Assembly: GCA_008632985.1 (NCBI GenBank)
Contig: QPGO01000119.1
Location: forward strand, 246,294-266,293
DNA from: Psammoneis japonica
Taxonomy: Eukaryota
Direction: 5' to 3'
Length of the DNA stretch: 20,000 nucleotides
The notes under the pieces are model-generated. The model did not search any database. It had not been told where the DNA came from and worked only from the letters and a program-made list of their open reading frames with translations. The first letter of the stretch is position 1. The number at the start of each line of letters is the position of its first letter. Made by a program: the position numbers and the translations under genes. Shown here piece by piece: positions 784 to 20,000 of the stretch.

Positions 784-832
784 TGTTGGGCCATGCTCCT
801 CCGAAGAGAAGACTGAGGCTTAGAGCACTGCA

Positions 833-2749: not shown

Positions 2750-2814
2750 GGTGTATCGGCAGTTCTACGGAGAGCGTGGTACTAAAAACACGTAGGTATA
2801 TTCAGTACAAGTAA

Positions 2815-4159
2815 TCGCAGAATTATACCACAAAAAAGTCAGTAGGGGGGCATGTCAAAGGTCTTTCGTCCTGCAAACGTTCGGGAACCTTTGAAACGTA
2901 CGCCCTTGTGGAACACACGCTGCACGATCCCGACGAGAGCAATGAAGAGATATTTCCAATCCTTGAAAGCGCATTTCGTGACACGTACAATGCTCTTAAT
3001 GCCCCCAGTCAAGAAGAGCATGTTTGCGACATGGATTCGAAACGGGTTGTGGAGAGAGTCACGGTGGTAGAGACGGACCACATCTTGAAACACATGGAAG
3101 GCCACAAACTCACCTCACGAAACTTTCTGTATAGAGTCACTGGAAGTTGCGAAGGTATTGGCTGCACAGAAGACACACATCTCTTTGACGTCGGCAATCG
3201 TAGAAACGAGGAGAAGGTCCTTTCTGTGTTGGCGGACAAGACGCCAACAACCTGCGAGTGCGCTGGAGGCCTTACCGAAAATCGCGCACCCATGGAGGCA
3301 GAATTCAGAGATGCTTTCCAAGAAGCGCTCTTCGAGACTGAGGCTCATGGAAGCTTATCGAATTTGAAATCGGTGAACACTGTCATAGAATATGGGGTGG
3401 TTAACTGCGATTGGCAACAAGATGTGTTTGAAAGTGACTATGACTTGGATTTCACTTGTGATCCCTTGGAGAAAGACTTTGGCTATCTCGGTGACAGTTT
3501 CTTGAACGAATACAACTCTGCCGCAACGTAAGTCCAGGAATATTTTTCGTCAAACACCGCATTCAAATATCTCACACTAACCGCTTTCACTATCACGTCC
3601 ATGCAGGTCCTACTGCGACCCAGAGTTCCGCTACATTACGGAAGTGAGTGTCCAAGACGAAGAGCAGCCAATGCTAAGACACAGAGATTTGAATATTGTA
3701 ACAAAGCAGCAAAAGAAGAGGAGCCTTCGGTTTAGAGTCAAGGGTAGGTGTAGGGGGTGCGGGGAAAATGCCCGTCTCTTCAATGACGCTTCTGACAGGA
3801 AGCTCCGTGTTTTAACTGATGCTGGCGATGTTACGTTTGATTTTCGCCACATTTATGACGGCCACGACGAGTGCTTTTGCGCACTGAGAAATGAAGGACA
3901 AACAGCTCAGTCTCAGGATGAATTTGTGCAGAGGTATAATGATGATCTGGCAAGAGCAAACATGAAAGGATTTTTGGGAAGGAAGTATGGTGTAACTGAA
4001 ATGACTTTACACGAAGTTATTGAAAGTATTAAAGAATTTCTAAGTGGCGTTGACTGGGAAAACCGAGATCGAGTCGGGGGTGGATTCCATGGCTTGGACT
4101 ACAGTGACCGGCAGAAACGAGATCGAGACATGGATGATCGGACGAGACGACTGAAGTGA
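2815..4159 (+). CDS. Cys-containing two-repeat protein of unknown function, spliced join(<2815..3527,3607..4159); start codon not found
   Basis: An intron joins ORFs 2908-3531 and 3644-4159 in frame (YNSAAT-SYCDPEFRYITEV). Two homologous repeats: F..[TE]YN...CD...R...V; [YF]RV.G.C.G(..)C.....LF; C.C; EF...[FY]...L. Confidence 0.75.
3528..3606 (+). other. Spliceosomal intron, 79 nt
   Basis: GTAAGT donor at 3528, CTAAC branch point 3577-3581, TGCAG acceptor ending 3606; removal deletes the stop and restores the repeat motif. Confidence 0.88.
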
Positions 4160-4769
4160 GTTGGGCACATACTTGGTTCACTATATACTACTTCTATAAG
4201 CAGCTTATTTACTTCTCCTCGTGCCTAGTTTAGAAAAGTCAAAAAGACACTAACACCAACTTGTCGGTATCCTCAAACGACGGCAGCGAGGACGAGAATC
4301 AGGATTCCATCACGGCTGTGAGCAGCGCTGGCGTTGAGAGTTTTCAAAGGCACTTATTGAACTAACAAGCGAACGAGACATGAAACGCTCATGTCATCGT
4401 TCCATGTTCCCGATATTGTCCTTAGGCACTCTAGCAAGGAACTGAACTTGTCCCGGTTCAGCTCGCCGTAGTTCTTTCAAAGATGAGTTTCGCGCGGGGG
4501 CAAATGTACGTAGTGAATCTGGCAATACAGGATTCAAAGGACGCTTGCAAAAGTCGTCGCTGCCCCCAAAGAGGCGAACTTCTGAACAATTCACATGACT
4601 CCTTCAATCTTTGCTGCTAGCTTTTTGAGTCCTCTCACGTGCTTCTTCTGCATCCCAATATAAGGATATCCTTGTTCATCATTGTAGCTGAAATGAGCAT
4701 TTAGCATGGATAGTCATTCACACTCCAGCAAGGTACTCCCAATACCCTTGGTAAACTTTGCGTCCTCCG

Positions 4770-4784
4770 CCCCCCCCCCCCCCC
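4770..4784. repeat. C15 homopolymer
   Basis: 15 consecutive C. Confidence 0.95.
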
Positions 4785-4904
4785 GTTCAGTTTTGCCGTC
4801 GCGTACTTGTAGAATCCAATCGCTTCATTGTGACAAGTGTAAATAAAAGTAGAACGTATTGAAAGTCATCCCTCCTCTAGCTAGAACTTCTTTGATGAAA
4901 TAAA

Positions 4905-6911
4905 TTACATTTTCTTTCCAAACTTGAAATTTGGATCCAACAATGGTTTCCTGCGACGAGAGGAACGCCTCACGCCGGCAGTTGGACTCGCCGCTGCAGG
5001 AGTCTCTTGCTGCGAGCTCGTGTCATTGGAAGTCCCATTCTCCGGTTTCAAGGCATCATGGTTCTCTTCGTTTACTTTCTCGGTTTGTTTTTCTTCTTGC
5101 TTGGCAATCTGTACCTCTTGCTCCTTTTTGCTGGTGGCTGTAGTTTGTTTCCCTTTTTCTTGCTCCTCTTTGGCTTGTGCCTCTGGCTCCATTGATTTGG
5201 TAGTTTTAGATTGTGTCTCTTCTCCTTGCTTTTCTTTAGTGCTACTAGAATCGGATGATGATGATGATGTAGAAGAAGAAGATGATGATGACGACGAGGA
5301 GGCGGAGCTACTAGAAGAAGACGATGATGAGCTCGTACTCGACAAATCCTCTTCCTCCTTCTTGGATCCCTCTTCTTTCTGTGCCTCTGGTGAAACGACA
5401 CCCTTTTGCTCGTCATTGTCGGGTACACGATCCACTACGCTGTCTTGGTCTGGATCAATGTCACCTTTTCCTTTGTCACGCTCCTTCTTGTCGCTTGGTG
5501 AATCCGGGATCACGTTGTCTTTGTCTTTGCCAGGCTCCTTCTTGTCGTTTGGTGAATCCGGGATCACGTCGTTTGTTTTCTGTTCTGGCGAATCAGGCTC
5601 TATTTCCTCTGGCGGATCTTCTTGCGTGACTGGTACTGGAGCATGTTCTTCGTCTGGCTTGGATGACGAAGAAGAACTTTCGCTTGAACTCGAAGAGGAA
5701 GATGATGACGAACTCGAGCTGCTGCTGCTACTACTGCTACTACTACTTGTAGTTGAGCTCGAATCATCCTCGTCTTCATTTTCGTCGGCCATGTCTGTTT
5801 TAGCTTTTGATTCCTCATGGTTGCTAGGTCCGTCCTCTTTGTTAGCAGTTGAATCGTTCTTTGCTTCTTTTGCGTTTTCCTCTTTATCTTCAACACTTGT
5901 CCCCATCCCTTTTATCGCGCCATTCACAACACTTGATTCCTCATTAGCTTCTTCGTTGGTGTCGTCTTTTGTTTCCTCTGTCTCTTTCACAGTGGGTTCC
6001 GTCTCTTCTGTTCCGCTGCCATTAGCTGCTGTCTCGGGCCCATTTGCCTTTGCGGTAGCCTCATGCGCCTTTTCATCAGGACTGGCCAGAGCGGAAGACG
6101 TTGCAGTGTCTATCTTTTCCGAGGCAATTGCAGCAGCAGCTGTAGTAGTCGCCTGTTCCTTGTTGGCAGTTGAAGCCAAGCTAGCCACTTTGGCCGCCTG
6201 CAGGATACTGTCTTTTCCTGCTTCTTCTTCGGTTGGTGGCGATGCCTCCTTGTGATAGGCATTGTTCAATTCCTCTTCCGTATCCATGTGACTCGTCGAG
6301 GAGCCTGAAGATGAATTCGAGGACGACGATGCTGCTGCAGATGCATCACTGTTGTCTTCATTGTTATCTGCTGCTGCGTCTTGAACCACCCACCCCTCTA
6401 CAGCTCCTCTTCTTGGTGGTTCATATGCCAACGTCATGGTTGTGGAAAGAGGCGGTGTTGGATCATCGCAATTGATGGGATCATTGTCGTTTCTGCGTTC
6501 ATAATCATACACCCAATACTCGACAGGCTCCAACCACAACGTAACATGATATTGTTGACCCGGTGGTAACAAATCGGCTATACAACAAAAGGGATCCCAA
6601 AACGTTTCGTGGCTTCCCACTTTATGATAGGCTCGAACAAAATAACGATAATGAGCAACGCGCTGTTGTTGTTCACGTCGTTGTGGTTCCATTATAATGT
6701 TCATTCGTATTCCCTGTCGAAAATTGCACCAAAAATCAATAATTTTGTCTCCTTGTGGTAAATGGGGAAAATACCACCACGTTGCTAAACCTCCTCGCTG
6801 TATGATTTCCAAAATCCAATCGGCAACCGTTGCCGAAGACTTTGGAATCAACGTTGTCATCAAGGCGGTATCGGAAGACCAGTCAACATTGATTGTAGCC
6901 AACGATGACAT
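4905..6911 (-). CDS. Hypothetical 668-aa protein: ~150-aa globular N-terminus, long acidic/poly-Ser disordered region, basic C-terminal NLS-like motif
   Basis: ATG-to-stop ORF of 2 kb; poly-Ser tracts with mixed codons; VIPDSP.DKKE duplicated with 54-bp period (~5480-5515 and ~5534-5569); RRSSRRRKP near the C-terminus. Confidence 0.8.
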   Translation of the reverse strand: MSSLATINVDWSSDTALMTTLIPKSSATVADWILEIIQRGGLATWWYFPHLPQGDKIIDFWCNFRQGIRMNIIMEPQRREQQQRVAHYRYFVRAYHKVGSHETFWDPFCCIADLLPPGQQYHVTLWLEPVEYWVYDYERRNDNDPINCDDPTPPLSTTMTLAYEPPRRGAVEGWVVQDAAADNNEDNSDASAAASSSSNSSSGSSTSHMDTEEELNNAYHKEASPPTEEEAGKDSILQAAKVASLASTANKEQATTTAAAAIASEKIDTATSSALASPDEKAHEATAKANGPETAANGSGTEETEPTVKETEETKDDTNEEANEESSVVNGAIKGMGTSVEDKEENAKEAKNDSTANKEDGPSNHEESKAKTDMADENEDEDDSSSTTSSSSSSSSSSSSSSSSSSSSSSESSSSSSKPDEEHAPVPVTQEDPPEEIEPDSPEQKTNDVIPDSPNDKKEPGKDKDNVIPDSPSDKKERDKGKGDIDPDQDSVVDRVPDNDEQKGVVSPEAQKEEGSKKEEEDLSSTSSSSSSSSSSASSSSSSSSSSTSSSSSDSSSTKEKQGEETQSKTTKSMEPEAQAKEEQEKGKQTTATSKKEQEVQIAKQEEKQTEKVNEENHDALKPENGTSNDTSSQQETPAAASPTAGVRRSSRRRKPLLDPNFKFGKKM

Positions 6912-7556
6912 ATTGTGAATATATGAGTACAGTATATTTCAAGAATACAAGAAGACTGCAACAAACACAATCAATTTAGCAGTCGCTGCAACCTTTTCCA
7001 TTTTCTTGTGAAGCACTTTTATTGTGTGGGGTGCGTCGGAAGCTGAGAGCAGAGACATCACGAAAGATCTTTGACGCGCGACGACAGACTTTTGCGCGGG
7101 AATCTGAGCGAGCGAAGGACAGGCATTTGCGCGCGAAACGAAGGATGATTTTCTTCGATCCAGTGTGACGACTAACTCGACCAGATTCTCGCATTTTCAA
7201 TTTCGGCTTTGACCGCACACATGCTTAGTGCGGTACAACCCGCTGCGCTTGCATTGTGTAAATAAGAATCGGGTTCTAATGTTGCAGATGCAGGAGATGT
7301 TCGTTTCATGTTGGTTCTTTTTCGGATTTCGTTGGTTGCTCTCAAAATTTTTATTTTCTGTGACTTGCCGACCGCAGAACAAGAACCCACTTGTGATAGT
7401 TGAGTCGTGCGAAGGCGAGGCTTGCCTCATTTTTTCTTCACATCGATCATCATTCACAATCAAAAATAGTTTCAAACTGGAGCTACAGGTCAGCTTTGGC
7501 AGTTCACAAACACTTCAAGACCATTTTTTTGTTTCCTTCTACTGCGGTTGGTGTCA

Positions 7557-8546
7557 ATGAGGAATAAGGAAAATGCTTCTTCCGCAAGCGACGAAGATGC
7601 AGAAGCGACTGCTGCTGCGTCTCGGCAGGAAAGTACCCGTATGATCCGCAGTCATCTCGATGCACATTTGGCATTGAATCCAAACTCCTCTTATGTATCA
7701 TGGATCGCTACACTTCACCCTGAAAATGCCCATGTTACCATTGATCCTCGTTTCTTTACTCCAGACAATCCGTGGAAAACTGTCTATGAAGAAGGAAGAG
7801 CTACTACGACGCACCACGTGACGGGTGTACCCGTGGCTAATAACGGAGAATCTGAGTCGGAACAAGCATCCAACACAGCCGCTCCATCCGAAACTCCAAG
7901 GAAACACGGTGGTTTGTTTGCTTGTGTCTTTGGCTTTACCATTGCTCTCATTGCCGTCCTTTGTGCCTTCATACTCGAGACAACCTCTGCTCCGTTTTAT
8001 CTCGTGGCGGTTGGTTTCCACAAGATTTGCCACTGCTGCAAGCTCAACGTATTGACCTTTCTTCCTCTATCCATTTTTTGGATTATGCTTCAAGTGTTTT
8101 TATGGACAGACATCCTTTTGCTCTGGGTCAATGTCTTGCTTGTCGAGCTCTTGGCCGTAACAAATGCCATGATTTGTACCCTCTTTTCGTTGGACTGTGG
8201 TGTGGGTAAAGCGTGGCACCAACACACGCGGCGTTTGGCTCACTACACTCGTTGGGCCTTTCGAATGCCCTTTCAGGAATGGAAGAATCCCCCCAGGTCA
8301 AACTGTTGTCCAGTGGCCACGGCCAATGAGGAAGAGGTTGAGGACGCCGTCAACGTGGTGATGGTTCGGGAGTGTTGCATTACGGATCGTCATGATGGCG
8401 CTGATGCGATTCACCAGGACTCCATTCCATCTGTGCCAGCGACTGCTCCAACAGAAGACGAAGAAGAACACGTCGTGGTCATTCCCCAAGATAGTATCGT
8501 CATTCTTGATGATGAAGATCAAGAGAAGGACGTTGAGTACAAGTAG
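7557..8546 (+). CDS. Hypothetical multi-pass membrane protein (~329 aa)
   Basis: First in-frame ATG at 7557; N-terminal SSYVSWIATLHPEN segment, 3-4 hydrophobic stretches, acidic tail. Confidence 0.8.
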   Translation: MRNKENASSASDEDAEATAAASRQESTRMIRSHLDAHLALNPNSSYVSWIATLHPENAHVTIDPRFFTPDNPWKTVYEEGRATTTHHVTGVPVANNGESESEQASNTAAPSETPRKHGGLFACVFGFTIALIAVLCAFILETTSAPFYLVAVGFHKICHCCKLNVLTFLPLSIFWIMLQVFLWTDILLLWVNVLLVELLAVTNAMICTLFSLDCGVGKAWHQHTRRLAHYTRWAFRMPFQEWKNPPRSNCCPVATANEEEVEDAVNVVMVRECCITDRHDGADAIHQDSIPSVPATAPTEDEEEHVVVIPQDSIVILDDEDQEKDVEYK

Positions 8547-9050
8547 TAGGACCGGAGAAAGCTGGTTTGATACAGTCGTGCATTATAATATGCACTGCAA
8601 TTCTTAATTGTAAGAATTTTGTTTCGAATTAGTGTGTTAAACTGCATGTGTTGTGTAAACAATCTCTTTTAGTGAAAATTCCACAAAGACAAATAGAAAA
8701 TCGAATATACTCGCACGCGCCTCTTTCGTTATCGTGGTAGATATCAGCGTGAGGCTGCTTGCAAAGGAAACGAGATTCTAGCTGTTCTCGAGAATAGTCC
8801 GAGAGGATCCGAAGCATCGAAACAAACTGTTCGACCAGTACTTTTTCTCCAACGGTTTTGTTGCGTTGACCTCAAACGAGGAAGAATCAAAAGACAAACA
8901 GTAGTTTCCAATCCAAGTCGAAGGCTGCTCCGGTGCGTTCTGGCGTTACGAGCCATGTCGAGTTGCTACGCCTGGTCTCTAGAGGCGGCCTTCGGATCTC
9001 TCTAATTCGATCGCAAAATAACTTAATACCAATAATCTATTTGACTCTGA

Positions 9051-10904
9051 CTAATAGTCAGCCATATCGTCACTGTCGAAGAGGCAGCTTTGCCCTAACC
9101 TCCGAGTCTCGTCATATGGCCCACGAGAGTGTAATTCACCACCACCTTGTGTAATGCACTTGAACCACGCTAGATCAAAATCCTTATCCATGGGAGTCTC
9201 CGGGTGAGACTCAATCTCTTCCTGGAAATCTCCATACTCCCATCCGTCGTCACCGTCCATGACGACATTTCGGGTGATACCAATTAAGGCATCTACAGCA
9301 TGTTCAATCTTGCCACCTTTGCTAAAGTAGTGTCGTACCTTGCGCTCATCAAAGCTAATATAGAAACATCCCAATTGTTGTCGAATGCAATATACAGTCG
9401 GTACCCTGCCTTTGTGTAAGATGTACATCATGATCTCCCACAGATGGAGCCACGTGTCAACAAAACTCTGATAAAGTCCTTCGGGATGTTGCTGGAGAAC
9501 CTCGGCGGGAATGTAGGCAAGTCGACTCATTCCAAACACACATTGGGCAATGGAGGTAGGCCGACCAGGAGAAAAGAAAATGCCTTCATCTGAATGTTGA
9601 AAGTCCCTTTCAATTTCAGCAGTAATAGTCAATGCGCGGCGCATCCGCGGTGACATCCACCCGTCAATCAGCGACTCTTGCATGGACGGTGGCATGAGCA
9701 TCGAGGTGATTTCTAGCTCTGGAATGACATCCATATATCGTGGTGGGAGAGACTCTATCCCCATGGCGGCTTCAGAGTCATCCCGTGATTGTCTCGCATC
9801 CTCGACTATTTTGAGCGGCGTGTCACCATAGCGATTGGTTGCCATTGTATCTGCACCCAGAGAAATGAGATACCTAATGGCGTCATGGTTTTTCGATGCG
9901 GCAGCCACATGGATTGGCCGGTCACCGATTTCATCACCCTTCTTGATATCGCCACCCAACCGAACAAGGGTTTGAAGTATACTCAAAGTCTTAGAACTAG
10001 AAACACTGATCGCCACCGCAATGAACAAGGCTTTGGACTTTTCAATTGATGCCCCGCGCTGAATAAGATCTTGAAGTCGTGAGGAATAATCTTGTACAAT
10101 CGAGGACCTTGCTGATGATTCAATCGCTGCTGTTCTAGCAGACGAACCACTGCGCAACCACTCTTTTACAAGATTCTGGAGTTCCAAATCCAAACCTTGA
10201 GGCTGTTTCCGTTTTGGCTCCATGTAAAGTTCAATCTCTGAAGCTGATGCTTTGCTCAACCATTGTGATTTTGCGTAGGCGGGTGGATGATTGGCTTGAA
10301 AGTACATGGAGGACGTTAGAAACCATGTGTTCCACAATTCGGGTCGATTCCCCGCTTGCACAAACCCTAAACGAGCCCAGTGTCGAGCAATCTTGTGTTT
10401 GGCAGTTTCGAAATCTCCGTTTCCTCTATCTTCCCTTGAAAGAGAATTCGTCCAGTGTCCAATAGTGAGCGTCCCGGGTTGCAACACTGCCAGGCTCCAA
10501 GAATCTTTCAGTAAAACAAAAAGCTCATGAAGCAGTCGAAGTCCCAGATCGTTTCCTCTGTGGGACGGCTCCACCTCGACTTCTTCCAAAACGAGAAATC
10601 CACCTCTTGAGACACACGAGCTGTTTGAAGTCAATAATGGGTGATTGACTCGGTTGGCAATCCCGTGTTTTTCACAAAAGATACGAGCCATGTCAATGGT
10701 TTCTGCGGAAATGGCATCGGCAAACTCAAAGAAATGGCGCGACGGTCTGGGCAAAAGAGCCCCTCTGACAATCGCTGCAAGCTCGCCACCTTTCTCTTTC
10801 AATTCCATGGATATTCTGTATTCATTTTCATACTGGAGCTCCACTTTGTACTCTGTGCCGCCAGGAGGCCACGAAAAAAGACTTGACGAGTAGCGAACCA
10901 CCAT
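9051..10904 (-). CDS. Protein with N-terminal GNAT-like acetyltransferase region and central ankyrin repeats (617 aa)
   Basis: EVEVEPSHRGNDLGLRLL (GNAT motif A-like) and HWARLGF (motif B-like); ankyrin GDRPIHVAAASKNHDAIRYLISLGADTMATNRYGDTPL. Confidence 0.82.
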   Translation of the reverse strand: MVVRYSSSLFSWPPGGTEYKVELQYENEYRISMELKEKGGELAAIVRGALLPRPSRHFFEFADAISAETIDMARIFCEKHGIANRVNHPLLTSNSSCVSRGGFLVLEEVEVEPSHRGNDLGLRLLHELFVLLKDSWSLAVLQPGTLTIGHWTNSLSREDRGNGDFETAKHKIARHWARLGFVQAGNRPELWNTWFLTSSMYFQANHPPAYAKSQWLSKASASEIELYMEPKRKQPQGLDLELQNLVKEWLRSGSSARTAAIESSARSSIVQDYSSRLQDLIQRGASIEKSKALFIAVAISVSSSKTLSILQTLVRLGGDIKKGDEIGDRPIHVAAASKNHDAIRYLISLGADTMATNRYGDTPLKIVEDARQSRDDSEAAMGIESLPPRYMDVIPELEITSMLMPPSMQESLIDGWMSPRMRRALTITAEIERDFQHSDEGIFFSPGRPTSIAQCVFGMSRLAYIPAEVLQQHPEGLYQSFVDTWLHLWEIMMYILHKGRVPTVYCIRQQLGCFYISFDERKVRHYFSKGGKIEHAVDALIGITRNVVMDGDDGWEYGDFQEEIESHPETPMDKDFDLAWFKCITQGGGELHSRGPYDETRRLGQSCLFDSDDMADY

Positions 10905-11330
10905 GGCTGACGTGCGAATGTATAAGACACCGCTCTTATCGCCCGCAAAGAACCAACGAGACTTGTTTGTCTTAATGAAAGCAGTGGCAATAATTTATAC
11001 ACGTCCAATGAAACAGTAGATTCTTTTTCAACACCAAGAGTTGCATACAAGTAGCGGCACCGAACTGTCATGGCATTGATGCTTTGCGCGGCAATCTCAC
11101 AGTAAAGTATGGATAGACGTTACTAGACGTAGTATGAAACTCTTCAGATGCTGATGAGATTATTGAATTTTTTCGAAAAGTTTATTTTATTCTTTATTCG
11201 TACAGTATGGTAAAGAACTAATAAGACCATTGAATATTATCGAAAAATTTAGTTGAAGTCTATCATTTCTTGCGAACACCGATTTTTCTTTTCCAATAGC
11301 AATCTTTCGCGCTGTAGAGTCATTACGTAG

Positions 11331-11466
11331 AAATTGTGTAGGACAATACCATGACAAGTCTGTCTGTCTGTCCTTAGTGAATTTTAACTTTGCGAAAAAT
11401 TGTGTAGGACAATACCATGACAAGTCTGTCTGTCTGTCCTTAGTGAATTTTAACTTTGCGAAAAAT
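11331..11466. repeat. Perfect tandem duplication, 2 x 66 bp
   Basis: 11331-11396 is identical to 11397-11462, plus AAAT repeated at 11463-11466. Confidence 0.95.
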
Positions 11467-12534
11467 GGATTTGACTGTTTTCTGATCAGGCGTATTTTTC
11501 TTCAACACATTTGCAAAAATACGCCTGACCCGATAACAGTCAAGTCTATTTTTGCACAAATTGTGTGAACATAACAGTTTCATTACAAAAACGTGTAGAT
11601 TCTACAGGCGTCCATAATTAATTTATGGGTTATACGTCACGGGTCATTTTCAAAAGATTCCCATTGACTCTCTTGACTGCTGTCAGAATGATCCGTACAG
11701 TGCGGTAGTTGCAGATAGAGGATGCTTGCCATAAAGTATGATGTTCTTCGCTGATTGATTGGTGATGCGATTTTTGTCATGTTCGACTCTCAATTTGCAG
11801 CTGGACGCAACAAGACGATGTCTTCTGTTGCGACGATGGCGAGGGCGCGCACCAAGGCCATTCTGCCAGAATGCTTTGCTGAAGGGTTCTTGACGGTGTT
11901 TGCTGGAAATGGCTTTGTCACATTTGATCATTTCAGATGCCACAGGGTGTGTGTGGAAGTCTCCAATCTCATTTTACTGCACGTCCGAAGCCAGTGTGCG
12001 ACGAGAGCCGAGAGCATGCCTCCACTGCAGTTCAAACAAACAGTTTGAAAAGGCGGCCAGCATCGTCAGGCGTCAGCTCCTGCTAGAGAGGGCCCTAACT
12101 TGGGAAGGCATAACCCGCGTTTGCTTCGTGTCAAAAACCCATACGTGCTTCAACATAAATGTACACAGAAAAAAACGCGATACCTTTTTTCAAAGAACAA
12201 CCTTCGACAACCTTCTACACGTGTTGGATCCGCGAATCGAGCGTGGGATCCGCAATCGCGAGTTGCGGTTGATGGGATCAAAATATGCACTCCTTAATTT
12301 ATCATAAAGACACTCTCATATTTTGAATGGCTAATTTCATCGACGCCAATTGCCCTTTGGATGGTCGTGATCGAAAAAGTGTCGCGGCGCCCCAACATTT
12401 TTCCCAACGCACCTGTTTCCGCTTGCCTCTCATGCGTGCATCGCGGGCATCGCCAAGCACGTCTCACATCTCACACATCATGTAAAAAAATGAATGACAA
12501 CACAACTCGCAAGCACCAGCAAACTCAAGACAAA

Positions 12535-13107
12535 ATGGCGTTTTTCCTTTCATCGGATACCAGTATATCCTCTTTGGTAGAGCACGACCTGGCATCCACT
12601 TTTATCGACGACTTGACCTTTTCTTCAAAAGAATCTACTACTAACGCCGAATCGCAGAACGCTCCAAGTAGCATTCAGATTGACTTCCCACCTTCATCTC
12701 CTTTCGATGTATTTTTAGGAAAAGGCAAACGAATTCATGAACGAAATCGTTTATTTCACGAAGCTATCGACGAGAATCGAAAGCGTTACGCCGAGGCGAC
12801 GAACAAGCGAGAAAAGACAAGCATCACATACGAAATTATAAATGGGGTAAAATCGAAAGGAGGAAGGTTTCTTCAAAAAGATGACGCATCAGGAATGTAC
12901 ATTGAAGCCAGCGATAAAGTGGCTAGAGAAAAGGTGAGTCATGCACTGCGGGCTCCAAAGCCCGCTCGTCCATCGCTGCAACAAGGTGCCGGTAAGAAAA
13001 GAAAGAGGACCATTACTCAAATTGATCAAGAAAAACTCGAGAATTTGTTTTCAAGTCAACGTCAAATTTTCCAAGAGCTGTTGGAGTCGGAGGAGGATAA
13101 TGATTGA
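12535..13107 (+). CDS. DUF6824-type domain protein (family expanded in diatoms), ~190 aa
   Basis: DVFLGKG...NRLF...I...RKRY...KREKT.I..EII..VKSKGGRFL...DKVAREKVSHALR signature. Start taken at AAAATGG 12535; upstream in-frame ATGs exist. Confidence 0.85.
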   Translation: MAFFLSSDTSISSLVEHDLASTFIDDLTFSSKESTTNAESQNAPSSIQIDFPPSSPFDVFLGKGKRIHERNRLFHEAIDENRKRYAEATNKREKTSITYEIINGVKSKGGRFLQKDDASGMYIEASDKVAREKVSHALRAPKPARPSLQQGAGKKRKRTITQIDQEKLENLFSSQRQIFQELLESEEDND

Positions 13108-13872
13108 ACAAGTTCTTGCGGATCTGCCCAACGTGAGCAGAATGGTTGACTAAAAGGCGACGCGCCTATCCAATCCAATATATTATAGGTGACCAAGATC
13201 AATTAATAACTTCATATTAACGGATACATAGAGACACGAATCTTTTCCTTTTTCTCGTTGCTATGGACTCTAGATTGACTTTGGTTGTATCTACCACAGT
13301 ATCGCCGCCGAGTCAGGTCCGCGGGAGATGCCGGTACAGCGTATCGGCGGTTGCTTACCAGAAGATTGCAGAAAGTCTTGTTCCCGTCACGAATAATCAC
13401 GATTTTAAGGAATACCAAGGTAGTGGACATTTTGGTCTCGAAATCAATCATCTGAAAGCATCCTTTACAAGTTCCAAGGTGCACACTCGTTTGTTGAATT
13501 GTATCTCATTTTTCGAGGAGGCAAATGAATGCCATAATAATCTTTCCGTCTTTTCCATTGAGTTCTCCAAATGAAGTCAGAGTAATAGAGAGTTAGGAAT
13601 GCATTCAGACGTGACAAGGACAACATATCCCATCCGCTGATAACAGCACCAAGAAGACATCGGGACAGCTTCAAGATGTGGAAACGCACTATTCATTATT
13701 CTCCTTGAAGTTGCTTCTCGCACGTCTCGTTCGGTTTTGGAGTTGACCGGTAGAGAGCATGCGAGCTACGAGCTCCGGTATCTTTCCGTACTACCAGTAG
13801 ACCGTGTTGAAGCATGATAATATGTAGCTGTTGGCGTTGAAGCAGGGAAAGGGTATCGAAAGGAAACCGGCC

Positions 13873-14700
13873 ATGGCGTATTGGCGACAAGGATACCGTG
13901 ACTGGGACGATCCATGGTATGACGACAGTGAGGAAGAAGAGGAGGACATTACGTTTTACCGACCGGATGGGAAAACGGAACGCAAGAGCATAGAGTGGTG
14001 TCGATCCAATGGCTTTTTCGAGATTGAGGAGGGCCTGTGGTCCGGCGATTGGTACTGGGAACGTTTTCCCGAGAAAAAGAGAGAATTGGAACAAAAGAAG
14101 AGAAAAAGACAAGAAGATCTCAAGGATCCAAAGTATTGGGAAAAATGGCATGCGAAGCAGCGAGCAGATCGGCGGGCTAAACTCCTAGACGAAGTGTATG
14201 GCTCGGAGTACAGCAATGCACGAGCGCTTGCAGAGTTACGGAGAATGGGTGAGGAAGAGTATGAGTTTGAATGCCCCATTGTATGGTGCAAGAGTCGCTT
14301 CCCAACTAATGACGATATGCAAGAGCATGTGAGAGAACAATGCGGGAAAGGACATCATAAATACCGAGTTGAACATGGTATTCCGTTTGAAGGGATTGAT
14401 CCACTCGAAAAGAAAAAGTTAGAGCAACAACTACAAGAATTGGAACGCGAGTAATGGTTGCTTGAAGTAGAGTTAGAGGTCAGGCGTGAGTATGAGTTGG
14501 GTCCCAACAAACTATTGTACGCCGACAAGCACCTGTTTGATTTGGAGCTTGAGAATCGTCTGGACGAGAACCTGCTAGAGTTGGTTTACTGGCTAGAGTC
14601 TGTGCGATTGGCTCGATGCAACGCAAAAATGTGGGACGAGCAAGCCTACACACCAGAGCGATCATTTATGAAAAAATGGCTAGGGTTGGATGAACGTTGA
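13873..14700 (+). CDS. Charged hypothetical protein with a C2H2-like zinc finger; ends at 14454, or continues to 14700 through one in-frame TAA
   Basis: ATG 13873; FECPIVWCKSRFPTNDDMQEH motif; the same frame stays coding-like for 81 codons after TAA 14452-14454. Confidence 0.62.
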
Positions 14701-15329
14701 TTTTCAATTGGCGTGAACAAGAGTAGGACGACATTGCCACCAACTGAGGCTACATAACACTATTAACGGTAAAATCTTTGAGTCAATCGATGTGTCTACA
14801 GCGTGTTGTGTCCCTTAGATGATAAGGAATACTAGTACTACAGTACTTTCAACATGCACGCAGGTGCCGACAAATTACAACAAAAATGGCAACCGCTTGC
14901 TTGATGCGATGTCTGATTGATGACGTCCTTTTGCTTCACCCGAACATGAGGCATCTCCAGTCATGCGCGGGTGATGTGTAAGTAGAACTACTTTACTTTC
15001 GCATCTGTTTATCTGAATACGAATTGTCAACGGAGACTTGGAGTTCGTAATCCTTCGTTGTACTGTATGTGCAGTACAGTACCGTACTGAAGCTATCATC
15101 CGCGCCTGAGAAGGCTACCTTACGTACATTTCAACGTATCGTGAAAAGCGTGAATCAACTAATGGTAATTCGTATGACGATGGCGTCCCATGATGGATGC
15201 AGTAGCTCTTTGCTACACCTCCCGAAGTGGCCTCCCGACCCTCCGCCATGGCCATCCTTCTTTTTGCGGATCCTTTTCCCTGCTGTTCTTGCCTTTGCCA
15301 TCGTCTCCTTTCTCCATTCCCTTTCGGTC

Positions 15330-15840
15330 ACTCCCTTCGCTCCTTTCGCCTGTACATTTCTACGCCCCCTCTACTGGTCCCCAGTTTCCACGATTGCCAA
15401 CTGCCCTTCCAACTGCTCATTCCATTGCCCTTTCATTCTTCCTCACTCCCTTTCTTCATCCCAACAACTGCCCTCTGCCATTTCCCTTTCTACTCTTCCT
15501 TATGCCCTCTCTCCTTCTCCGCCTCGTTCGATTCTTTTCCCTATGGCCCCTCTTTGCCCCCTGACCTCTTCCCCACTTCCTCCTCTAGCAACCCCTTCAA
15601 TTGCCCCCCTTCCTCCCATGACTCCCTTCGCGCTTTTAGTTGTGACTCCTCTCCTATCGTTCCACATGCCTTTCTACGCCCCTCCGAACACGATTGCTTC
15701 CATACTCCTCTACAGCTTCCCCTACCCTTCAGCCCTCTCTACTGCCCCTTTCTCTTCCATGACTCCCTTCGCGCTTCTGCTTGTGCCTTCCCCCCTATGT
15801 TTCTATGCGCCCTCTACGATCATTCGTGTACGATTGCCCA
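15330..15840 (+). repeat. Three degenerate direct repeats in the element 5' region
   Basis: Ordered motifs ACTCCCTTCGC (15330, 15621, 15762), then TTTCTA(C/T)GC, then ACGATTGC in each unit. Confidence 0.75.
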
Positions 15841-15956
15841 CGTCATGCCTTCACCTTCCCTCCTCCTATCTTTCTACGCGTTCTGTGACCTTGTCGCTGT
15901 TTTTGGCGATCCGCACACAACAACGACTCTCTGCAACTTTCTCTTTCCGTTTGACC

Positions 15957-17619
15957 ATGTCCACTCTCGCCTCCGCTCCTCCTGCTGACGTTAAGCTTTT
16001 AGCTCAGGTCCTTCATCCTACTGACCTGCCTGACATGCCCACCATTGCTCTTGCGTCTGATGTCATTCGCGACATTGTTCTCAAGACGCCAGAGCATCAC
16101 AGCCGGCGTGTCTCTCCGCTCCTCCTCACTCTTGGCTCTGTGACGCTTGCTGAAACCAAGAAACGCTCCCACCCCCACCAGAATCAGTGGGCGTCTTACT
16201 TTCACGTTGCTCTTCACCCGGTGACGCCCGATGGCACCACCTTTGCCTTCGAATCCTTCCGCAGCCAAGCGCTCTCTTTTCTCCTTCAGAAATGGCATCT
16301 GCACCCTGCGTCGCACTTCACCCCCTTCCGCTCTGCCAGCTCCCCTTCCAATTTTCTCCACCCTGACTTCTCTCCGGTTTTGGCTGTGGACAATCCTTGG
16401 GCTCGACACTGCACCTTTGTGATCCCGGCCTGCAACTCTTTCGATGAAAAGGCTCGTGGCATCCTTGCTGGCCCCTCTCCAACCCTCTGCGGTTCTTCTT
16501 GACGCACTTCTGAGTTTCTCCTGTCCCGCCTTTGTTCCTTCCTTGTTGGCAAGATTTCCAGCACTGCGACCAATCCCATTCTTCAATCCTTCCGAGACTG
16601 TCCTGCCTTTCTTGGTCTCGTTGGAATTCGTCCTTCGCAATGCCCCGCTAACTCGGCCCAGGCGCGACGCTGTTCTCTTCCGGTTTTTTACATTTCTGCT
16701 GCCTCCGATGCCGTCTGGAACACCCCACTTCATGTCACCAATCCATCCAATGCGCCACCTGCCTCCTTCTCCATCCTGGGGACATCCACCACCATCATTC
16801 CCTTCCCAGCCCCGGCCAACTTTGCTTCCACCTACAACGCCCTCTCCGAGCAACATGAAAGTGGTTGTCTCTGACCATCTTCTCCTTCCTCTCACCCAAC
16901 CTGGCATCAGTCGTCTCCTTGCTGCAACCAATCTTCGCTCCCTTGTCCCCATCTTCTCTGCTCATGACTCCCTTCCAATCAAGTGCAAGCTGCTCTTTTT
17001 CCCGTCTCTGTGCACAATTGCTCTTGTGGATGCCAACCCACATGACTGTCCCAGCTTTCCCTTGGATCTCCTTGCCTCTGCGGCGGAATCTACCCATGAC
17101 GACAGCATGGCTTCCCCATCCTGTGCCTCTGCTGCTCTTCAGCCGCCTGCCCCCTCTCAAGATTCTTTCTCGTGTCGTGCCCTTGAGCTGCTTGCTCAAG
17201 ACTGGCAGCTCCCCAAACCCCAAGATCCGCTCCCCACTGCTGCATCTCCTTCCTCTCATCCTCCCCAAGCCCACTCCCTCACCACCGAGCCTCCTCCCTC
17301 CAAGCATCCCCACTCTTCTCCCGACACTTTCTCTCCGCCCCCTGCCATTCCTGCCGCAGTTGTGCAGACCTCTCCGCCCCCCACCACTCCCGATGCAATC
17401 ATGCAGACCGAATCTGATGACTCGGTTTCTCCTCAGCAGACCCAGCGCGAGATGGAACTCTTGGATGTCCTTGATGCCTTCGTAGGTGCTTGCTGCCCGG
17501 CCAGCCTTTCTGCCTGGAAACCTTTCTACGAAGAAGCCATCCGGGCTGCAGCCCCTGATGTCGACTCCCTCCGCGATCTCATTGCCTCGTGGAACCCACC
17601 GAAGCCCGTGCCCCGCTAA
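15957..17619 (+). pseudogene. Putative ORF1 of the CRE-like element, frameshifted near 16470-16500
   Basis: MSTLASAPP... frame ends at 16502 and overlaps a second frame running to TAA 17617-17619. The first frame is also open upstream to ATGs at 15162-15180, so the start is uncertain. Confidence 0.55.
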
Positions 17620-20000
17620 CCTGCCCCTTCTGCTCCTGGTCCCCTCCTTCCATTGATGCATCATCTCTTCCTGCCACTGTGCGCAGCCATCTTCGCCAGG
17701 AGCATCCCCGCCTCTCCCTTTCTCATGCACCTGCGTCCTTCTTTGATGCCGCTGGTTTGCATGTCTGCAGGCATTGCAATCACAGCCAATGCACCTGCCT
17801 GTCTGCCACCCACCTCCGCAATCACTTGCAGAACAAGCACTTTGCTCCTCGCTCTTCCCTCAACACTGACATTGTTCTCTCGTCCTTCCATAATCTGGGT
17901 GACTGGGGCCCCTCGCCACAATGGCTCCATGCTCTTGCACTCGAGCCTCCGCCTTTCCGAGCTTCCTGTCGCCGCAAGCTCTCGTCCTCTGCCCGTGAGG
18001 AACTCCACTCCGCTCTTCATCATGTGACAAGCTGGGCACTGGCCGCCTCCCAGCCCCCATCTGACCCCTCCCATCTCATTCCTACGTGGCAACGTGACTC
18101 TGCTCCCTTCTGGAAGCTTCTCTTGCTCTTTGAAGCTCTCGTTCTTGCTCCTGTCCCGCCACGCTCCAAGTTTGGCCCTGCCATTGCCTCCCGCTTGTCC
18201 CTCTTCCGCCGTGGCTGCATTCGCCAACTCTGTCACGAAGCCTGCTCCCACACGCCGTGCCTCTCCTCATCTTCCCCTGACTTTTCTGCTTCCACCTGCT
18301 GCCATTCCGCTCAAGTCTGCGCCGACGAAGATGACTTTCACTCGGCCCACTCCAAGCTCACCTCTGCACTTCCTGTTGCTGCCGTTGCTCCTGAGCGCCT
18401 TCCTGCCATCCTCAAGCTCTGCCCTCCTCGCCTGCATCCCTCCGACCTGCCCAATCCTCCTTCAACTCGCTCGGCCTCCTCCCTTCATGACGAGCCCATT
18501 GAGCTCTCCTCCGACGCTCTTCTTTCTGCTCTCTCCAAATGCAAGCCTGGGACTGCTGCCGGTGTCTTTGCTGATTCCACTGACCTCTTCAAGTCCTGCG
18601 CCCTTTGTTCCACCAAAACCCCGACAGGAGTTGCTCAACGTCCCTGCTTGTCATCCTTCCGTGAGCTTGTCCTTCTCCTGCTCCATGGCTCCATTCCTCC
18701 CTCCGTCCATTCCTTGTTTGCTTCAAACTGCTTTGTCGCTCTGCACAAAGATGCTGGCGACCTCAACAAGCTTCGCCCCATTGGTGTCGGCACTGCTCTC
18801 CGTCGCATTGCCGGCTCCATCGTCATGACTCTCTTTGGTTCTGCATTTGCCGAATGCCTCCTCCCAGATGGCCAATTTGGCATTGGTGTCAAAGGTGGCC
18901 TCGATTGTCTCACTCACTCTGCTCTTGCCAACATCGAACGATGTCTTTCTTCTGCCGACTCTGCCAAGGTTCTTCTTCTTCTTGACCTTGCCAACATGTT
19001 CAACAAAGCATCCCGAGATGCCTGTCGACACGTTCTCACCTCCACCCCTGCCTTCCATCCTCTGCTTCCTTTTTTTGACCTTCCACACCAAAGTTCCAAT
19101 GCATGTTGGTGTCGCCGACCCGATTCTTCCTGGGGCTCCTTTCTTCAAGAAGAGGGATTTGCCCAAGGATGCCCTCTCGGCCCTGTCTTCGCCAGCCCAG
19201 TCCTCTCTCTGGTTCTTCGTCCAATCAACCAAGAGCTTCAAGAACGAATCCCTGGCCGTTCCTCTGTCTCAGTTGGCTCCTGCGTTGATGATGCTCATGC
19301 TTTCCTTCCCCATTCGGTGCTCCCATGGTTCCTTGAACGCTTCTCCGCCCTCGGCGCTCCCTGCGGGATCTCCCTCAACCTCCGTAAAACCAAGATCCTC
19401 GCCTCCATTGCCGGTGTTAGCCCCATCCCTGCTCTCCCCCCTTCCCGTGCCGATTCTCTCCGTGCTGCACTTTCCTTCTTAAACCCCACCAATGACCCCT
19501 CTTACAACCCCGAACTCACCTCTGGCGTTCGCTTCCTCGGACAGCCCCTCGGCTCCCGCGACTTCGCCACCTCCTTCCTTTCCGATGCTTCCTCTGCTCT
19601 CTCCGACAAAGTTGACATGCTTCTCACCCGTCTTCATGACAAACAAACCCAGGCTCAACTCTTCAAGCACTGTTTTGTTCTATCCTCTGCTCACCTCCTT
19701 GGGGCTGACTTCCACCACAACTTCGACCCCGACAATCCTCCCGACCCCTTTCTCTGGACCTCTCCATTTCAAGATTTCCTCCTCACCGTTGCTCACCGCT
19801 TTCTTCACTGCGTCACTTCCTACGCCACTCCTTTTCCTGACCATTCTATTGCCATCGCCTTCCTTCCTGCCTCCTCAGGCGGGTTTGGTCTCCGGGATCC
19901 AACAGCTGCTGCCATTCCTTCCTTCTTGGTGTCGCTTCTCCGCTCATTCCGCTTTGCTTTGCACGGTGTCAGCCTGCCATCTGGCGCTTCTGTTTCCCTT
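17589..20000 (+). pseudogene. ORF2: two C2H2 zinc fingers + reverse transcriptase; frame open to window end but catalytic motif altered
   Basis: Hand translation, 804 codons without a stop: CPFC..HLRQEH, CRHC..HLQNKH, KLRPIGVGTALRR, QFGIGVKGG, LLDLANMFN, GFAQGCPLGP, SCVDD (19278-19292), LNLRKTKI, GVRFLGQPLG, LPASSGGFGLRD. Confidence 0.92.

Follow-up and report, generated by a model that had tools for sequence, protein, structure and literature searches.

TpA-specific A:T>G:C hypermutation as the probable cause of TpA deserts in two non-LTR retrotransposon copies of a probable diatom genome

How does a retrotransposon lose nearly every TpA dinucleotide while the host DNA beside it retains them? 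This question is raised by the window analyzed here (the whole stretch of 20,000 nucleotides), whose right end is occupied by a non-LTR element that continues beyond the last base. The features of this right element, all on the + strand, are:

15201..16020, +, pyrimidine-rich 5' region with ordinary TpA (TA O/E 0.73)
15957..16502, +, first ORF, from an internal ATG at 15957 (181 aa, no Pfam family)
16021..20000, past the window end, +, body of the right non-LTR retrotransposon copy, a TpA desert (O/E 0.10)
16444..17619, +, second ORF (391 aa, Pro/Ser-rich, Tyr 0.3%)
17589..20000, +, ORF2, with N-terminal Cys/His fingers and a reverse transcriptase (RT; Pfam RVT_1)
18084..19384, +, longest TA-free run, in the RT domain (1301 bp)
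19281..19292, +, RT active-site motif CVDD in the ORF2 frame, where relatives have Y/F-x-DD

Within 16021-20000, 167.3 TA are expected from base composition and exactly 17 are observed, a count that the first-pass annotation had given as approximate. On the sense strand, TG (O/E 1.52) and CA (O/E 1.25) have been gained. The longest stretch without TA had been placed at 18085-19384 and proved one base longer, and the 21 TA quoted for a host segment (9061-9420) were found again on recount. Against a baseline O/E of ~0.53, taken from the six relatives closest in composition, 88.7 TA would be expected across the element (P(<=17) = 1.4e-20) and 28.6 in the 1300-bp desert (P(0) = 4e-13). The coding consequences that had been described also hold: ORF2 has its first Tyr at codon 639 and none in the 638 codons before it, and the RT motif reads TGC-GTT-GAT-GAT (aa 565-568). 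Overall, ORF2 contains 0.2% Tyr and 8.8% Cys+His, compared with a family median of 6.0% for the latter.

The right element has the outline of a non-LTR retrotransposon. ORF2 stays open for 803 codons up to the window end with no in-frame stop, Pfam RVT_1 matches aa 392-651 (E 5e-8), and a C-x2-C-x12-H-x3-H pattern lies at its N-terminus, with no Pfam zinc-finger match. In full-length relatives, the C-terminus shows a C-x-C...GDH...C knuckle and, after it, an E...RPAD...D(V/I)T block; this endonuclease block is seen in the relatives only, the window copy ending upstream of that domain. The element is provisionally labeled R2/CRE/NeSL-type, from its motifs (an RT and putative zinc fingers at the N-terminus) rather than from an RT tree; the first-pass annotation had called it CRE. 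Its features in common with elements of this type, which have a restriction-enzyme-like endonuclease, are the N-terminal Cys/His fingers, the central RT, and the two ORFs. The first and second ORFs overlap in different frames, which may reflect a frameshift in an original ORF1. Searching the window with Rfam for a spliced-leader, rRNA, or snRNA target beside the element gave 0 families, a sequence search of solved structures with a full-length relative gave 0 matches, and tblastx of the ORF1/5' region against relatives yielded low-complexity Pro/Ser matches only.

The composition shifts near 15200 (A 0.11-0.14, C 0.36-0.46), and the desert sets in only at ~16020, an offset that the first-pass annotation does not mention. 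The intervening segment would comprise a putative 5' UTR and the first ~21 codons of the first ORF; it contains a direct repeat (15593-15661 and 15733-15801, ~140-bp spacing), and its depth of 358-584 indicates that it is multi-copy. We infer that it is part of the right element, whose desert body is likewise multi-copy, with a summed contig depth of 758-3705 versus ~58 for the host.

The opposite end of the window holds a second depleted element, followed by host DNA:

1..2620, past the window start, -, TpA-poor body of a second, unrelated non-LTR element (O/E 0.17)
85..783, -, putative apurinic-type endonuclease start of the left ORF2 (Pfam Exo_endo_phos)
833..2749, -, left first ORF (638 aa, no Pfam family, Tyr 0.8%)
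2621..2810, -, left element 5' end with ordinary TpA (O/E 1.22)
2811..15200, no strand, host DNA serving as internal control, with ordinary TpA (509 TA, O/E 0.56)

The left body contains 25 TA where 144 are expected, with CA at 1.35 and TG at 1.36 on the sense strand, and is multi-copy at a depth of 313-496. Its depletion is absent from the first-pass annotation. The endonuclease match (E 2.7e-5) scores 24.4 bits, just under the cut-off of 24.5, and its ORF contains 0.4% Tyr and 6.0% Cys; this ORF overlaps another at 3-527 in a different frame, probably through a frameshift. From these sequence features the left element would be an APE-endonuclease-type non-LTR element, and neither blastn nor tblastx detects any real similarity between it and the right one. 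Its spared 5' end holds the first ~45 codons of its first ORF; the edge of repeat depth falls between bins 2158-2818 and 2819-3479, and differences among multiple contigs occur at 2754-2760.

Between the two elements, the 12.4 kb of host DNA behaves differently. Five-hundred-bp windows starting at 2501-15501 never fall below an O/E of 0.31, whereas the nine desert windows (starts 1-2001 and 16001-19501) are all at or below 0.26, so that the depletion is bounded, with step-like edges. Baseline TA is in any case low, at an O/E of ~0.5 in the element family and 0.56 in the host. The host DNA contains DUF6824 and ankyrin ORFs, and the best named match of the ORF at 7548-8546 is from a diatom (47% identity); a word-indexed search found no homologues of the DUF6824 ORF, and Pfam gave nothing over the cut-off for nine further host ORFs. 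The taxonomic distribution of DUF6824 points to Bacillariophyta, while that for the ankyrin ORF carries no signal about the host. Since two families without detectable similarity are depleted and the host DNA between them is not, the cause appears to lie at the level of the host. The first-pass annotation had proposed that repeats are targeted, and on this the data are mixed: a short repeat at ~11331-11600 with a depth of 3121 has ordinary TpA, and, although both deserts are multi-copy, so are the 5' parts of both elements that keep ordinary TpA. Hence neither a simple "all repeats" nor a "whole element" rule fits.

To establish the direction of change, we turn to the relatives. Thirty of 31 related metagenome loci have a TA O/E of 0.36-0.85; the exception, L007, stands at 0.05 and contains the only further TpA desert in these loci and their flanks. 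Compared with L003, a relative 74.8% identical to it, L007 retains 6 of 146 TA, with 56 changed to CA, 49 to TG, 17 to TC, and 6 to TT, while 2012 of 3376 other dinucleotides are retained (41-77% by type; Fisher p = 2e-45). The substitutions are thus enriched at TpA, as the first-pass annotation had anticipated, and its reading of TpA loss through A:T>G:C transitions on both strands is borne out by TA>TG and TA>CA alike. No consistent preference for a wider sequence context around TpA emerges from L003 to L007. None of the 44 L003 Tyr codons survives in L007 (24 TGN for Cys, 18 CAN for His, 2 other), which also carries an in-frame TGA and indels in non-multiples of three. Its desert ends sharply, the last TAs inside lying at 3468 and 3486 and ordinary density resuming from 3575; L003/L004 homology ends 27 bp past the ORF2 stop, which puts the desert end no more than a few bases from the 3' end of the element. 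Among the family representatives listed, 12 of 152 are Tyr-poor, and their nearest relatives fall into at least five separate groups. Together with the ordinary TpA of the 30 loci, this indicates that the TpA-poor state is derived.

The same replacements are found in the window copy. Its seven conserved Tyr columns are all lost, five to Cys and one to His, with one offset by a column beside the Cys of CVDD, whereas other conserved columns are largely kept (Phe 19/21, Trp 5/5, Leu 45/56, Ile 7/11). At a threshold of 0.3, the Tyr columns give seven Cys and four His, with codons that are now TGY or CAC. The claim of near saturation regardless of protein function is therefore sustained by the Cys or His at six of seven Tyr columns and by the L007 codons above. 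Siblings were hit separately. At 30 Tyr sites of L003/L004, each covered in at least two of seven Tyr-poor siblings, the residues are Cys 52, His 42, Tyr 10, and other 11, and at 16 of these 30 ancestral sites Cys occurs in some siblings and His in others, which implies independent hits on individual copies; the first-pass annotation had raised the case of all copies sharing one TpA-free sequence, and these siblings do not share one. Proteins P0002 and P0003 differ at 44 of 444 aligned residues, the commonest exchange being Cys<>His (6), and 30 of the 44 differences fall in classes expected from TA>TG/CA.

These comparisons bear on the idea that selection, rather than mutation, removed TpA: an active lineage would have purged UpA from its RNA, escaping UpA-cutting ribonucleases or RNA decay, and CVDD would belong to a functional master. 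UpA is disfavored in cytoplasmic RNAs of many eukaryotes, according to the available part of one source (PMC3829696), the 803-codon frame of ORF2 is open with its conserved Phe, Trp, and Leu retained, and the synonymous route prevails at NNT|ANN codon boundaries of L007 (19 CA, 1 TG). This bias at boundaries may mean that purifying selection operated for part of the process, or that the ancestral third-position base is unsure. Such selection is nevertheless a very improbable cause. All conserved Tyr residues, the catalytic one included, are replaced, by Cys and His nearly equally; sibling differences between Cys and His, with some sites still Tyr, mean that the TA-free state was not inherited from one master; L007 is broken; and the trait is common to two unrelated families and absent from their 5' ends. 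High-depth contigs of the right element's own family, moreover, have TA at three positions (18251, 18578, and 19198) at which the window reads CA. The open ORF2 leaves slight room for an active TA-free lineage in the case of the window copy.

Within the window's own genome, 17 difference rows lie inside the elements (among 40 of 1375), and nine of them swap TA with CA or TG, where ~20% would do so by chance (P = 0.003). Eight of the nine have TA in other copies and CA or TG in the window, and one is the reverse. Rows 2200/2201 form a double difference, TG versus CA. The overall spectrum of contig differences is symmetric (A>G 218, G>A 233, C>T 239, T>C 257), which fits independent resolution into CA or TG and fits ordinary transition noise equally well. 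In run X2, one contig skips a GT..AG intron and looks RNA-derived; the run has no cover over either desert and was not counted as evidence.

The right-element rows among these differences show a base in the window that occurs in no contig, as would be the case if a TpA base modification in transposon DNA caused systematic base-calling errors over true TA. We regard this artefact as scarcely credible, given that the signature recurs in metagenome assemblies and protein sets unrelated to this one (L007 and the 12 Tyr-poor representatives) and that clean transitions preserving an 803-codon frame are unlike modification-induced errors. Run X1, in addition, contains 54% of sampled 31-letter words from 12001-20000, and since the host part (12001-15200) makes up only ~40% of that stretch, the element is partly supported by reads.

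Selection and assembly artefact thus fit the data poorly. Judged from the sequences, the change is a TpA-specific A:T>G:C mutational process, which has both strand outcomes, is confined to element bodies, hit siblings independently, and recurs in other lineages of the family. Our favored explanation, which we hold to be probable, is that a host-driven hypermutation of this kind overwrote both non-LTR retrotransposon copies, now dead or dying, in the genome of what is probably a diatom. At each TpA, one A:T pair would be converted to G:C, so that an A changed on the top strand gives TpG and one on the bottom strand CpA. The process would approach saturation within a sharply bounded domain corresponding to the element body, sparing the 5'-most 0.2-0.8 kb and neighboring host genes. 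Every Tyr codon would be removed (TAY to TGY, Cys, or CAY, His), including that of the catalytic Tyr of YxDD, and we propose that this loss inactivates the element. By analogy with de novo TpA>TpG/CpA changes in mutation-accumulation lines of Bigelowiella natans, it would act on integrated DNA in situ. The process is presumably enzymatic, through a DNA adenine deaminase or a mispairing thymine modification, and chromatin marks or small RNA may guide it in what could be a genome-defense role. As the first-pass annotation remarked, no candidate enzyme is visible here: no deaminase family was found by Pfam among the ORFs of the 20-kb window, a result that applies to the window only.

Would the same editing take place during retrotransposition instead? 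An ADAR-like or other adenosine deaminase could act on UA of the template RNA (TA>TG) and on TA of the first-strand cDNA in the RNA:DNA hybrid (TA>CA), and copies would be born mutated. Independent patterns in sibling copies agree with this, as does a desert in L007 that stops at the element's 3' end; the 5' end, being copied last and exposed most briefly, could thereby be spared; and ADARs prefer a U preceding the edited A, as stated in the available part of the preprint on B. natans (bioRxiv 10.64898/2026.01.13.699255). Two different substrates would have to be edited at near-equal rates, however (56 CA and 49 TG; 24 Cys and 18 His), the 5' edge is a step with no gradient, and the sole direct observation of the process concerns viral DNA that is integrated, single-copy, and transcriptionally silent, and that does not move by retrotransposition. 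We consider this route unlikely, although it deserves to be kept in mind.

A further alternative departs from the favored in situ hypermutation in chemistry only: a TpA-directed thymine modification, such as a 5-hydroxymethyluracil (5hmU)-type mark on transposons, would mispair with G and yield T>C. Because TpA reads the same on both strands, sequence does not tell A>G from T>C chemistry. We know of no report of strong mutagenicity for 5hmU at T positions. A dinoflagellate enzyme makes 5hmU, with a role in transposable-element silencing, according to the accessible part of PMC11572971, while the authors of the B. natans preprint favor adenine deamination, on a candidate ADAT2 homologue only (bioRxiv 10.64898/2026.01.13.699255). 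On balance, a thymine lesion seems to us doubtful.

Several known systems resemble the process that we favor. RIP is defined by its dependence on duplication and by its premeiotic stage. Like the present footprint, fungal RIP consists of transitions in a dinucleotide context that hit both strands and ruin transposon copies one by one; it differs in that the short high-copy repeat in our window is untouched. RIP as such is rejected by its direction, being C:G>T:A mainly at CpA and producing TpA (excerpt of PMC2621366), where the present change takes TpA away and adds CpA/TpG. ADAR hyper-editing of double-stranded RNA is alike in being A>G, in preferring a preceding U/T, and in having repeats and viruses as usual substrates. 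A fossil of such RNA editing was dismissed, as editing of sense transcripts gives TA>TG only and sense TA>CA is equally frequent here; ADARs are, besides, known as metazoan enzymes. APOBEC3/AID hypermutation also inactivates retroelements through a host deaminase with a dinucleotide context. It was rejected too, for APOBEC changes are C>U (G>A on the plus strand) and strand-asymmetric, as the part of PMC4866542 consulted has it, and those observed here are A:T>G:C and strand-symmetric.

To our knowledge, no natural A:T-to-G:C hypermutation was known in a eukaryotic genome before 2026. The closest system is that of the chlorarachniophyte (Rhizaria) B. natans, for which hypermutation at TpA is reported in NCLDV and virophage DNA integrated in the genome (Mettrop et al., bioRxiv 10.64898/2026.01.13.699255). 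In the available portion of that preprint, two integrated viral regions of mutation-accumulation lines acquired 231 single-nucleotide mutations, of which 230 were A>G or T>C, all at TpA, at a rate of ~6e-7 per site per generation (~1000-fold over background), and RT, endonuclease-RT, and DDE domains were over-represented among TpA-depleted CDS (bioRxiv 10.64898/2026.01.13.699255). The first-pass annotation therefore stands in its account of A:T>G:C loss of TpA, near saturation and disregard of protein function, and is out of date in one respect, as the process it took to be undescribed has a counterpart in that preprint. The proposed aim at repeats sits less easily with the target in B. natans, which is single-copy. 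Our literature search for TpA>TpG/CpA hypermutation returned only this preprint and none in diatoms; the portion of its text searched by term has zero mentions of diatoms, stramenopiles, or retrotransposons.

A footprint in a second supergroup-level lineage, probably diatoms, suggests that a one-species curiosity is a candidate widespread genome defense. We put forward, tentatively and at somewhat less than even odds, that SAR protists (the probable diatom, several environmental lineages, and Rhizaria) share a guided DNA base-editing defense, which would convert A:T to G:C at every TpA in a marked chromatin domain and silence retrotransposons and integrated viruses by erasing Tyr codons, its mark covering the element body and not the promoter-proximal 5' end. 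If this is true, the organism encodes a natural, targetable editor of A:T>G:C in double-stranded DNA, and such an editor would be of interest to the base-editing field. The sharp edges and the 5' sparing are handles for finding the enzyme and its guide, and some diatoms are genetically manipulable. For annotation, Tyr-free, Cys/His-rich RT "proteins" such as the Tyr-poor representatives would be fossils of the process rather than functional variants.

The likeness to B. natans, as far as the available part of that report extends, is close: both systems change A:T>G:C exclusively, at TpA only, into TpG or CpA by strand; both hit bounded foreign DNA while the remaining genome mutates normally; and both leave long-term TpA depletion with a gain of CpA and TpG. 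They differ in host, a chlorarachniophyte versus a probable diatom (stramenopile), and in extent, as the NCLDV region of B. natans is mildly depleted (rho 0.45) and multi-copy non-LTR retrotransposons here reach an O/E of 0.05-0.17. Element 5' ends are spared here, and we see footprints only, whereas de novo events were seen there. Taken together, what our analysis adds to that system is a probable diatom host, the saturation of non-LTR elements, recurrence in environmental relatives, copy-by-copy action, and a sharp sparing of 5' ends.

The window carries two non-LTR retrotransposons, separated by 12.4 kb of host DNA:

17589-20000, plus strand: ORF2 of the right element, open at the window end, with a Pfam RVT_1 match and Cys/His finger patterns at the N-terminus
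1-2810, minus strand: the left element, a non-LTR retrotransposon of another type, with an apurinic-type (APE) endonuclease match and a 638-aa first ORF

The C-terminal part of full-length ORF2 relatives carries a C-x-C...GDH...C knuckle together with an E...RPAD...D(V/I)T block. Because of these blocks, the RVT_1 match and the N-terminal fingers, the right element is predicted to be an R2/CRE/NeSL-type non-LTR retrotransposon. Comparison of the left and right elements found no shared similarity. In the left element, ORFs 85-783 and 3-527 share sequence but not reading frame, indicating that this copy is probably frameshifted. When Logan contigs from sequencing run X1 were placed on the window at ≥80% likeness, summed depth was 313-496 over the left element and 758-3705 over the right element, climbing toward its 3' end, against ~58 over host DNA; both elements are therefore multi-copy.

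Both elements are severely depleted of TpA. In the right element, base composition would give 167 TpA over positions 16021-20000, and 17 are present (observed/expected ratio, O/E, 0.10); the 1301 bp from 18084 to 19384 hold none, versus 21 in the host stretch 9061-9420. TpG (O/E 1.52) and CpA (1.25) are both elevated. Even with the low TpA of the six relatives nearest in composition (O/E ~0.53) as the baseline, the shortfall is extreme, with P(≤17 | 88.7) = 1e-20 for the element and P(0 | 28.6) = 4e-13 for the 1301-bp desert. ORF2 has no Tyr before codon 639, where the first one stands, and the reverse transcriptase motif at 19281 reads TGC-GTT-GAT-GAT in the ORF2 frame, giving CVDD (aa 565-568). 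The TpA counts, the Tyr-less start of ORF2 and the CVDD motif reported in the first-pass annotation all proved exact on recount. The left-element body (1-2620) has 25 TA (O/E 0.17), with CpA at 1.35 and TpG at 1.36, and its ORFs are Tyr-poor (0.4-0.8%). TpA O/E is 0.56 in the intervening host DNA, where every 500-bp window, by its start position, stays at 0.31 or higher.

The host is a eukaryote. The nearest Atlas clusters of a DUF6824 ORF are commonest in Bacillariophyta, and the best named homologue of ORF 7548-8546 is a diatom protein annotated 'transmembrane protein' (47% identity). A second run, X2, covers 7446-8767 at a depth of 280-490 (~15-40 elsewhere), from a ~90%-similar paralogue or allele of that ORF. 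One X2 contig joins 3527 straight to 3607; the skipped 79 bp (3528-3606) begin GTAAGT and finish CAG, and form a canonical intron in a host gene on the plus strand, with exons within 2815-3527 and 3607-4159, so X2 looks RNA-derived despite its listing as 'DNA?'. A tandem repeat at 5465-5569 (54-bp offset, two 51-bp copies, 90% identical) lies inside a 668-aa minus-strand host ORF. The window has one N, at position 174.

For the right-element family, a profile search across 1.84 billion representatives yielded 5699 members, and a metagenome scan gave 31 loci, 30 of them with ordinary TpA (O/E 0.36-0.85). These 30 share the C-rich, G-poor sense strand, so the strand skew is a family trait and lies outside the anomaly. 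The exception is L007, another desert: over 2.1 kb it contains 5 TA (O/E 0.05), with TpG at 1.94 and CpA at 1.32. Its alignment with L003 and L004 spans 3.6 kb (74.8% identity); those two loci share 97.6% identity, and their ORFs (1068 and 1264 codons) are intact. Of the 146 TpA in L003, L007 keeps 6; 56 have become CpA, 49 TpG, 17 TpC and 6 TpT, whereas all other dinucleotides are kept at 41-77% (TpA versus the rest, Fisher p = 2e-45). None of 44 Tyr codons survives (24 TGN, 18 CAN, 2 otherwise changed). NTA codons went to TG 24 times and to CA 19 times, and NNT|ANN boundaries to CA 19 times and to TG once. An in-frame TGA and indels with lengths that are not multiples of three mark L007 as a dead copy. 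That the same signature recurs in unrelated assemblies defeats an explanation by assembly artefact.

L002, L003 and L004 (e.g. L003:564-7396) are 97.5-99.3% identical copies, in three metagenome assemblies, of an intact 6.8-kb element with normal TpA (ORF1 1068 aa, ORF2 1264 aa, ~27 bp past the ORF2 stop); they look like a young, probably active family. A sister subfamily 75% identical to it, comprising L007 and six proteins, is entirely Tyr-poor. Two giant predicted proteins with the same RT family, P0120 (5900 aa) and P0134 (4213 aa), have ~1% Tyr and 0.4-0.7% Asn/Lys and are probably read-through gene models from GC-rich genomes.

The window's own ORF2 tells the same story at the protein level. 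We took the alignment columns with Tyr in at least half of 40 Tyr-normal relatives. ORF2 keeps Tyr at 0 of these 7 columns (5 Cys, 1 His, and 1 offset by one beside the CVDD Cys), the codons there being all TGY or CAC; Phe is kept at 19/21, Trp at 5/5, Leu at 45/56 and Ile at 7/11 columns. ORF2 is thus otherwise well preserved, and the TpA process must be far faster than ordinary decay. L007 and these columns bear out the earlier proposal of an A:T to G:C loss of TpA, near saturation and regardless of protein function. Among the 40 differences listed of the 1375 between the X1 contigs and the window, 17 lie inside the two elements, and nine of these interconvert TA with CA or TG, versus ~20% by chance (P = 0.003). 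In eight the other copies have TA where the window has CA or TG (18251, 18578, 19198, 2098, 2201, 2223, 2351 and 2607), and one, at 2182, runs in the opposite direction; 2200 and 2201 jointly form a TG-versus-CA double difference. Over all X1 differences, opposite transitions are about equally frequent (A>G 218, G>A 233, C>T 239, T>C 257), as independent resolution to CA or TG predicts; symmetry alone is not diagnostic.

Sibling copies indicate that each was altered on its own. Twelve of the 152 family proteins listed are Tyr-poor (<1%, median 2.6%) and rich in Cys and His; their nearest relatives put them in at least five separate groups, and six are siblings of L007. At 30 L003/L004 Tyr sites, each covered by at least two of seven copies (L007 and the six siblings), Cys occupies 52 cells, His 42, Tyr 10 and others 11, and 16 of the 30 sites have Cys in some copies and His in others. 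The same copies keep Phe in 99/114 cells and Trp in 16/16. Two family proteins, P0002 and P0003, are 90% identical, and their commonest difference is Cys<>His (6 of 44 differing residues in 444), for which every direct route takes two base changes; 30 of the 44 belong to the classes that TA>TG/CA would produce (Y/C/H, I/M/T, L-P, L-S, V-A and first-position A>G). It follows from these differences and the Cys/His mixture that the copies had ancestors with TpA and that each was hit on its own. Selection for UpA-free RNA would also remove TpA, but it fails on this Cys/His polymorphism, the loss of the catalytic Tyr, the broken state of L007 and the TA carried by sibling contigs.

The depletion has sharp limits. 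In the right element, pyrimidine-rich composition starts at ~15200, TpA is normal over 15201-16020 (O/E 0.73), and the desert begins ~60 bp past the ATG at 15957; CpG O/E falls over the same edge, from ~0.9-1.0 to 0.53-0.83. The left repeat extends to ~2810, with TpA O/E 1.22 over 2621-2810, and its desert begins ~130 bp inside the first ORF. The 5'-most 0.2-0.8 kb is thus spared in both elements, with a step-like edge, and the L007 desert boundary coincides with the element end. TpA is also normal in a short high-copy repeat at 11331-11600 (summed depth 3121, 37 contigs at one site). This repeat holds a 70-bp sequence that recurs exactly at a 66-bp offset (11331-11400 / 11397-11466) and a 110-bp inverted repeat, and may be a MITE or satellite. 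Together with the spared 5' ends it speaks against the rule that any repeat is hit; the spared sequence hints that chromatin or small RNA may define the domain, or that exposure time during reverse transcription may matter.

The process is thus a TpA-specific A:T>G:C change on both strands, saturating, limited to element bodies, independent from copy to copy and blind to protein function. Because TpA is self-complementary, adenine deamination and a mispairing thymine modification are inseparable by sequence. Given a precedent in Bigelowiella natans (bioRxiv 10.64898/2026.01.13.699255), we envision a hypermutation that would act on already integrated DNA, would be enzymatic and may serve genome defence. 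Editing of RNA and cDNA during retrotransposition is a rival that fits the independent copy patterns and the exact 3' edge, but it requires equal editing of two substrates and leaves the B. natans case unexplained.

A literature search for TpA>TpG/CpA hypermutation found a single description, that preprint, so the first-pass statement that no description was known, though reasonable, is outdated. That preprint reports 302 nuclear single-nucleotide mutations from B. natans mutation-accumulation lines, 231 of them inside two integrated viral regions. Of the 231, 230 were A>G or T>C and every one of these lay at TpA; the rate was ~6e-7 per site per generation, in some lines only. RT, endonuclease-RT and DDE domains were over-represented among TpA-depleted CDS, and an ADAT2 homologue was proposed as the candidate enzyme. 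Its main text makes no mention of diatoms, stramenopiles or retrotransposons; its supplementary tables S6-S11 give the TpA-depleted CDS and clusters, among which elements of the present family may already figure. Our analysis adds a second major lineage with the signature, the host being probably a diatom and not Bigelowiella. It extends the targets to non-LTR retrotransposons, hit to saturation, and shows the signature, in public data, in no fewer than five groups within a single element family. It also gives direct evidence that copies are hit one by one, and shows that element 5' ends are spared. APOBEC was considered as the process and rejected. ADAR leaves a one-strand trace, whereas both strands are affected here, and fungal RIP is the mirror image, C>T at CpA, creating the TpA that is here lost. 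The closest likeness is to the B. natans hypermutation, three of whose defining features recur here in the sequence footprints; the fourth, de novo occurrence, is the B. natans observation.
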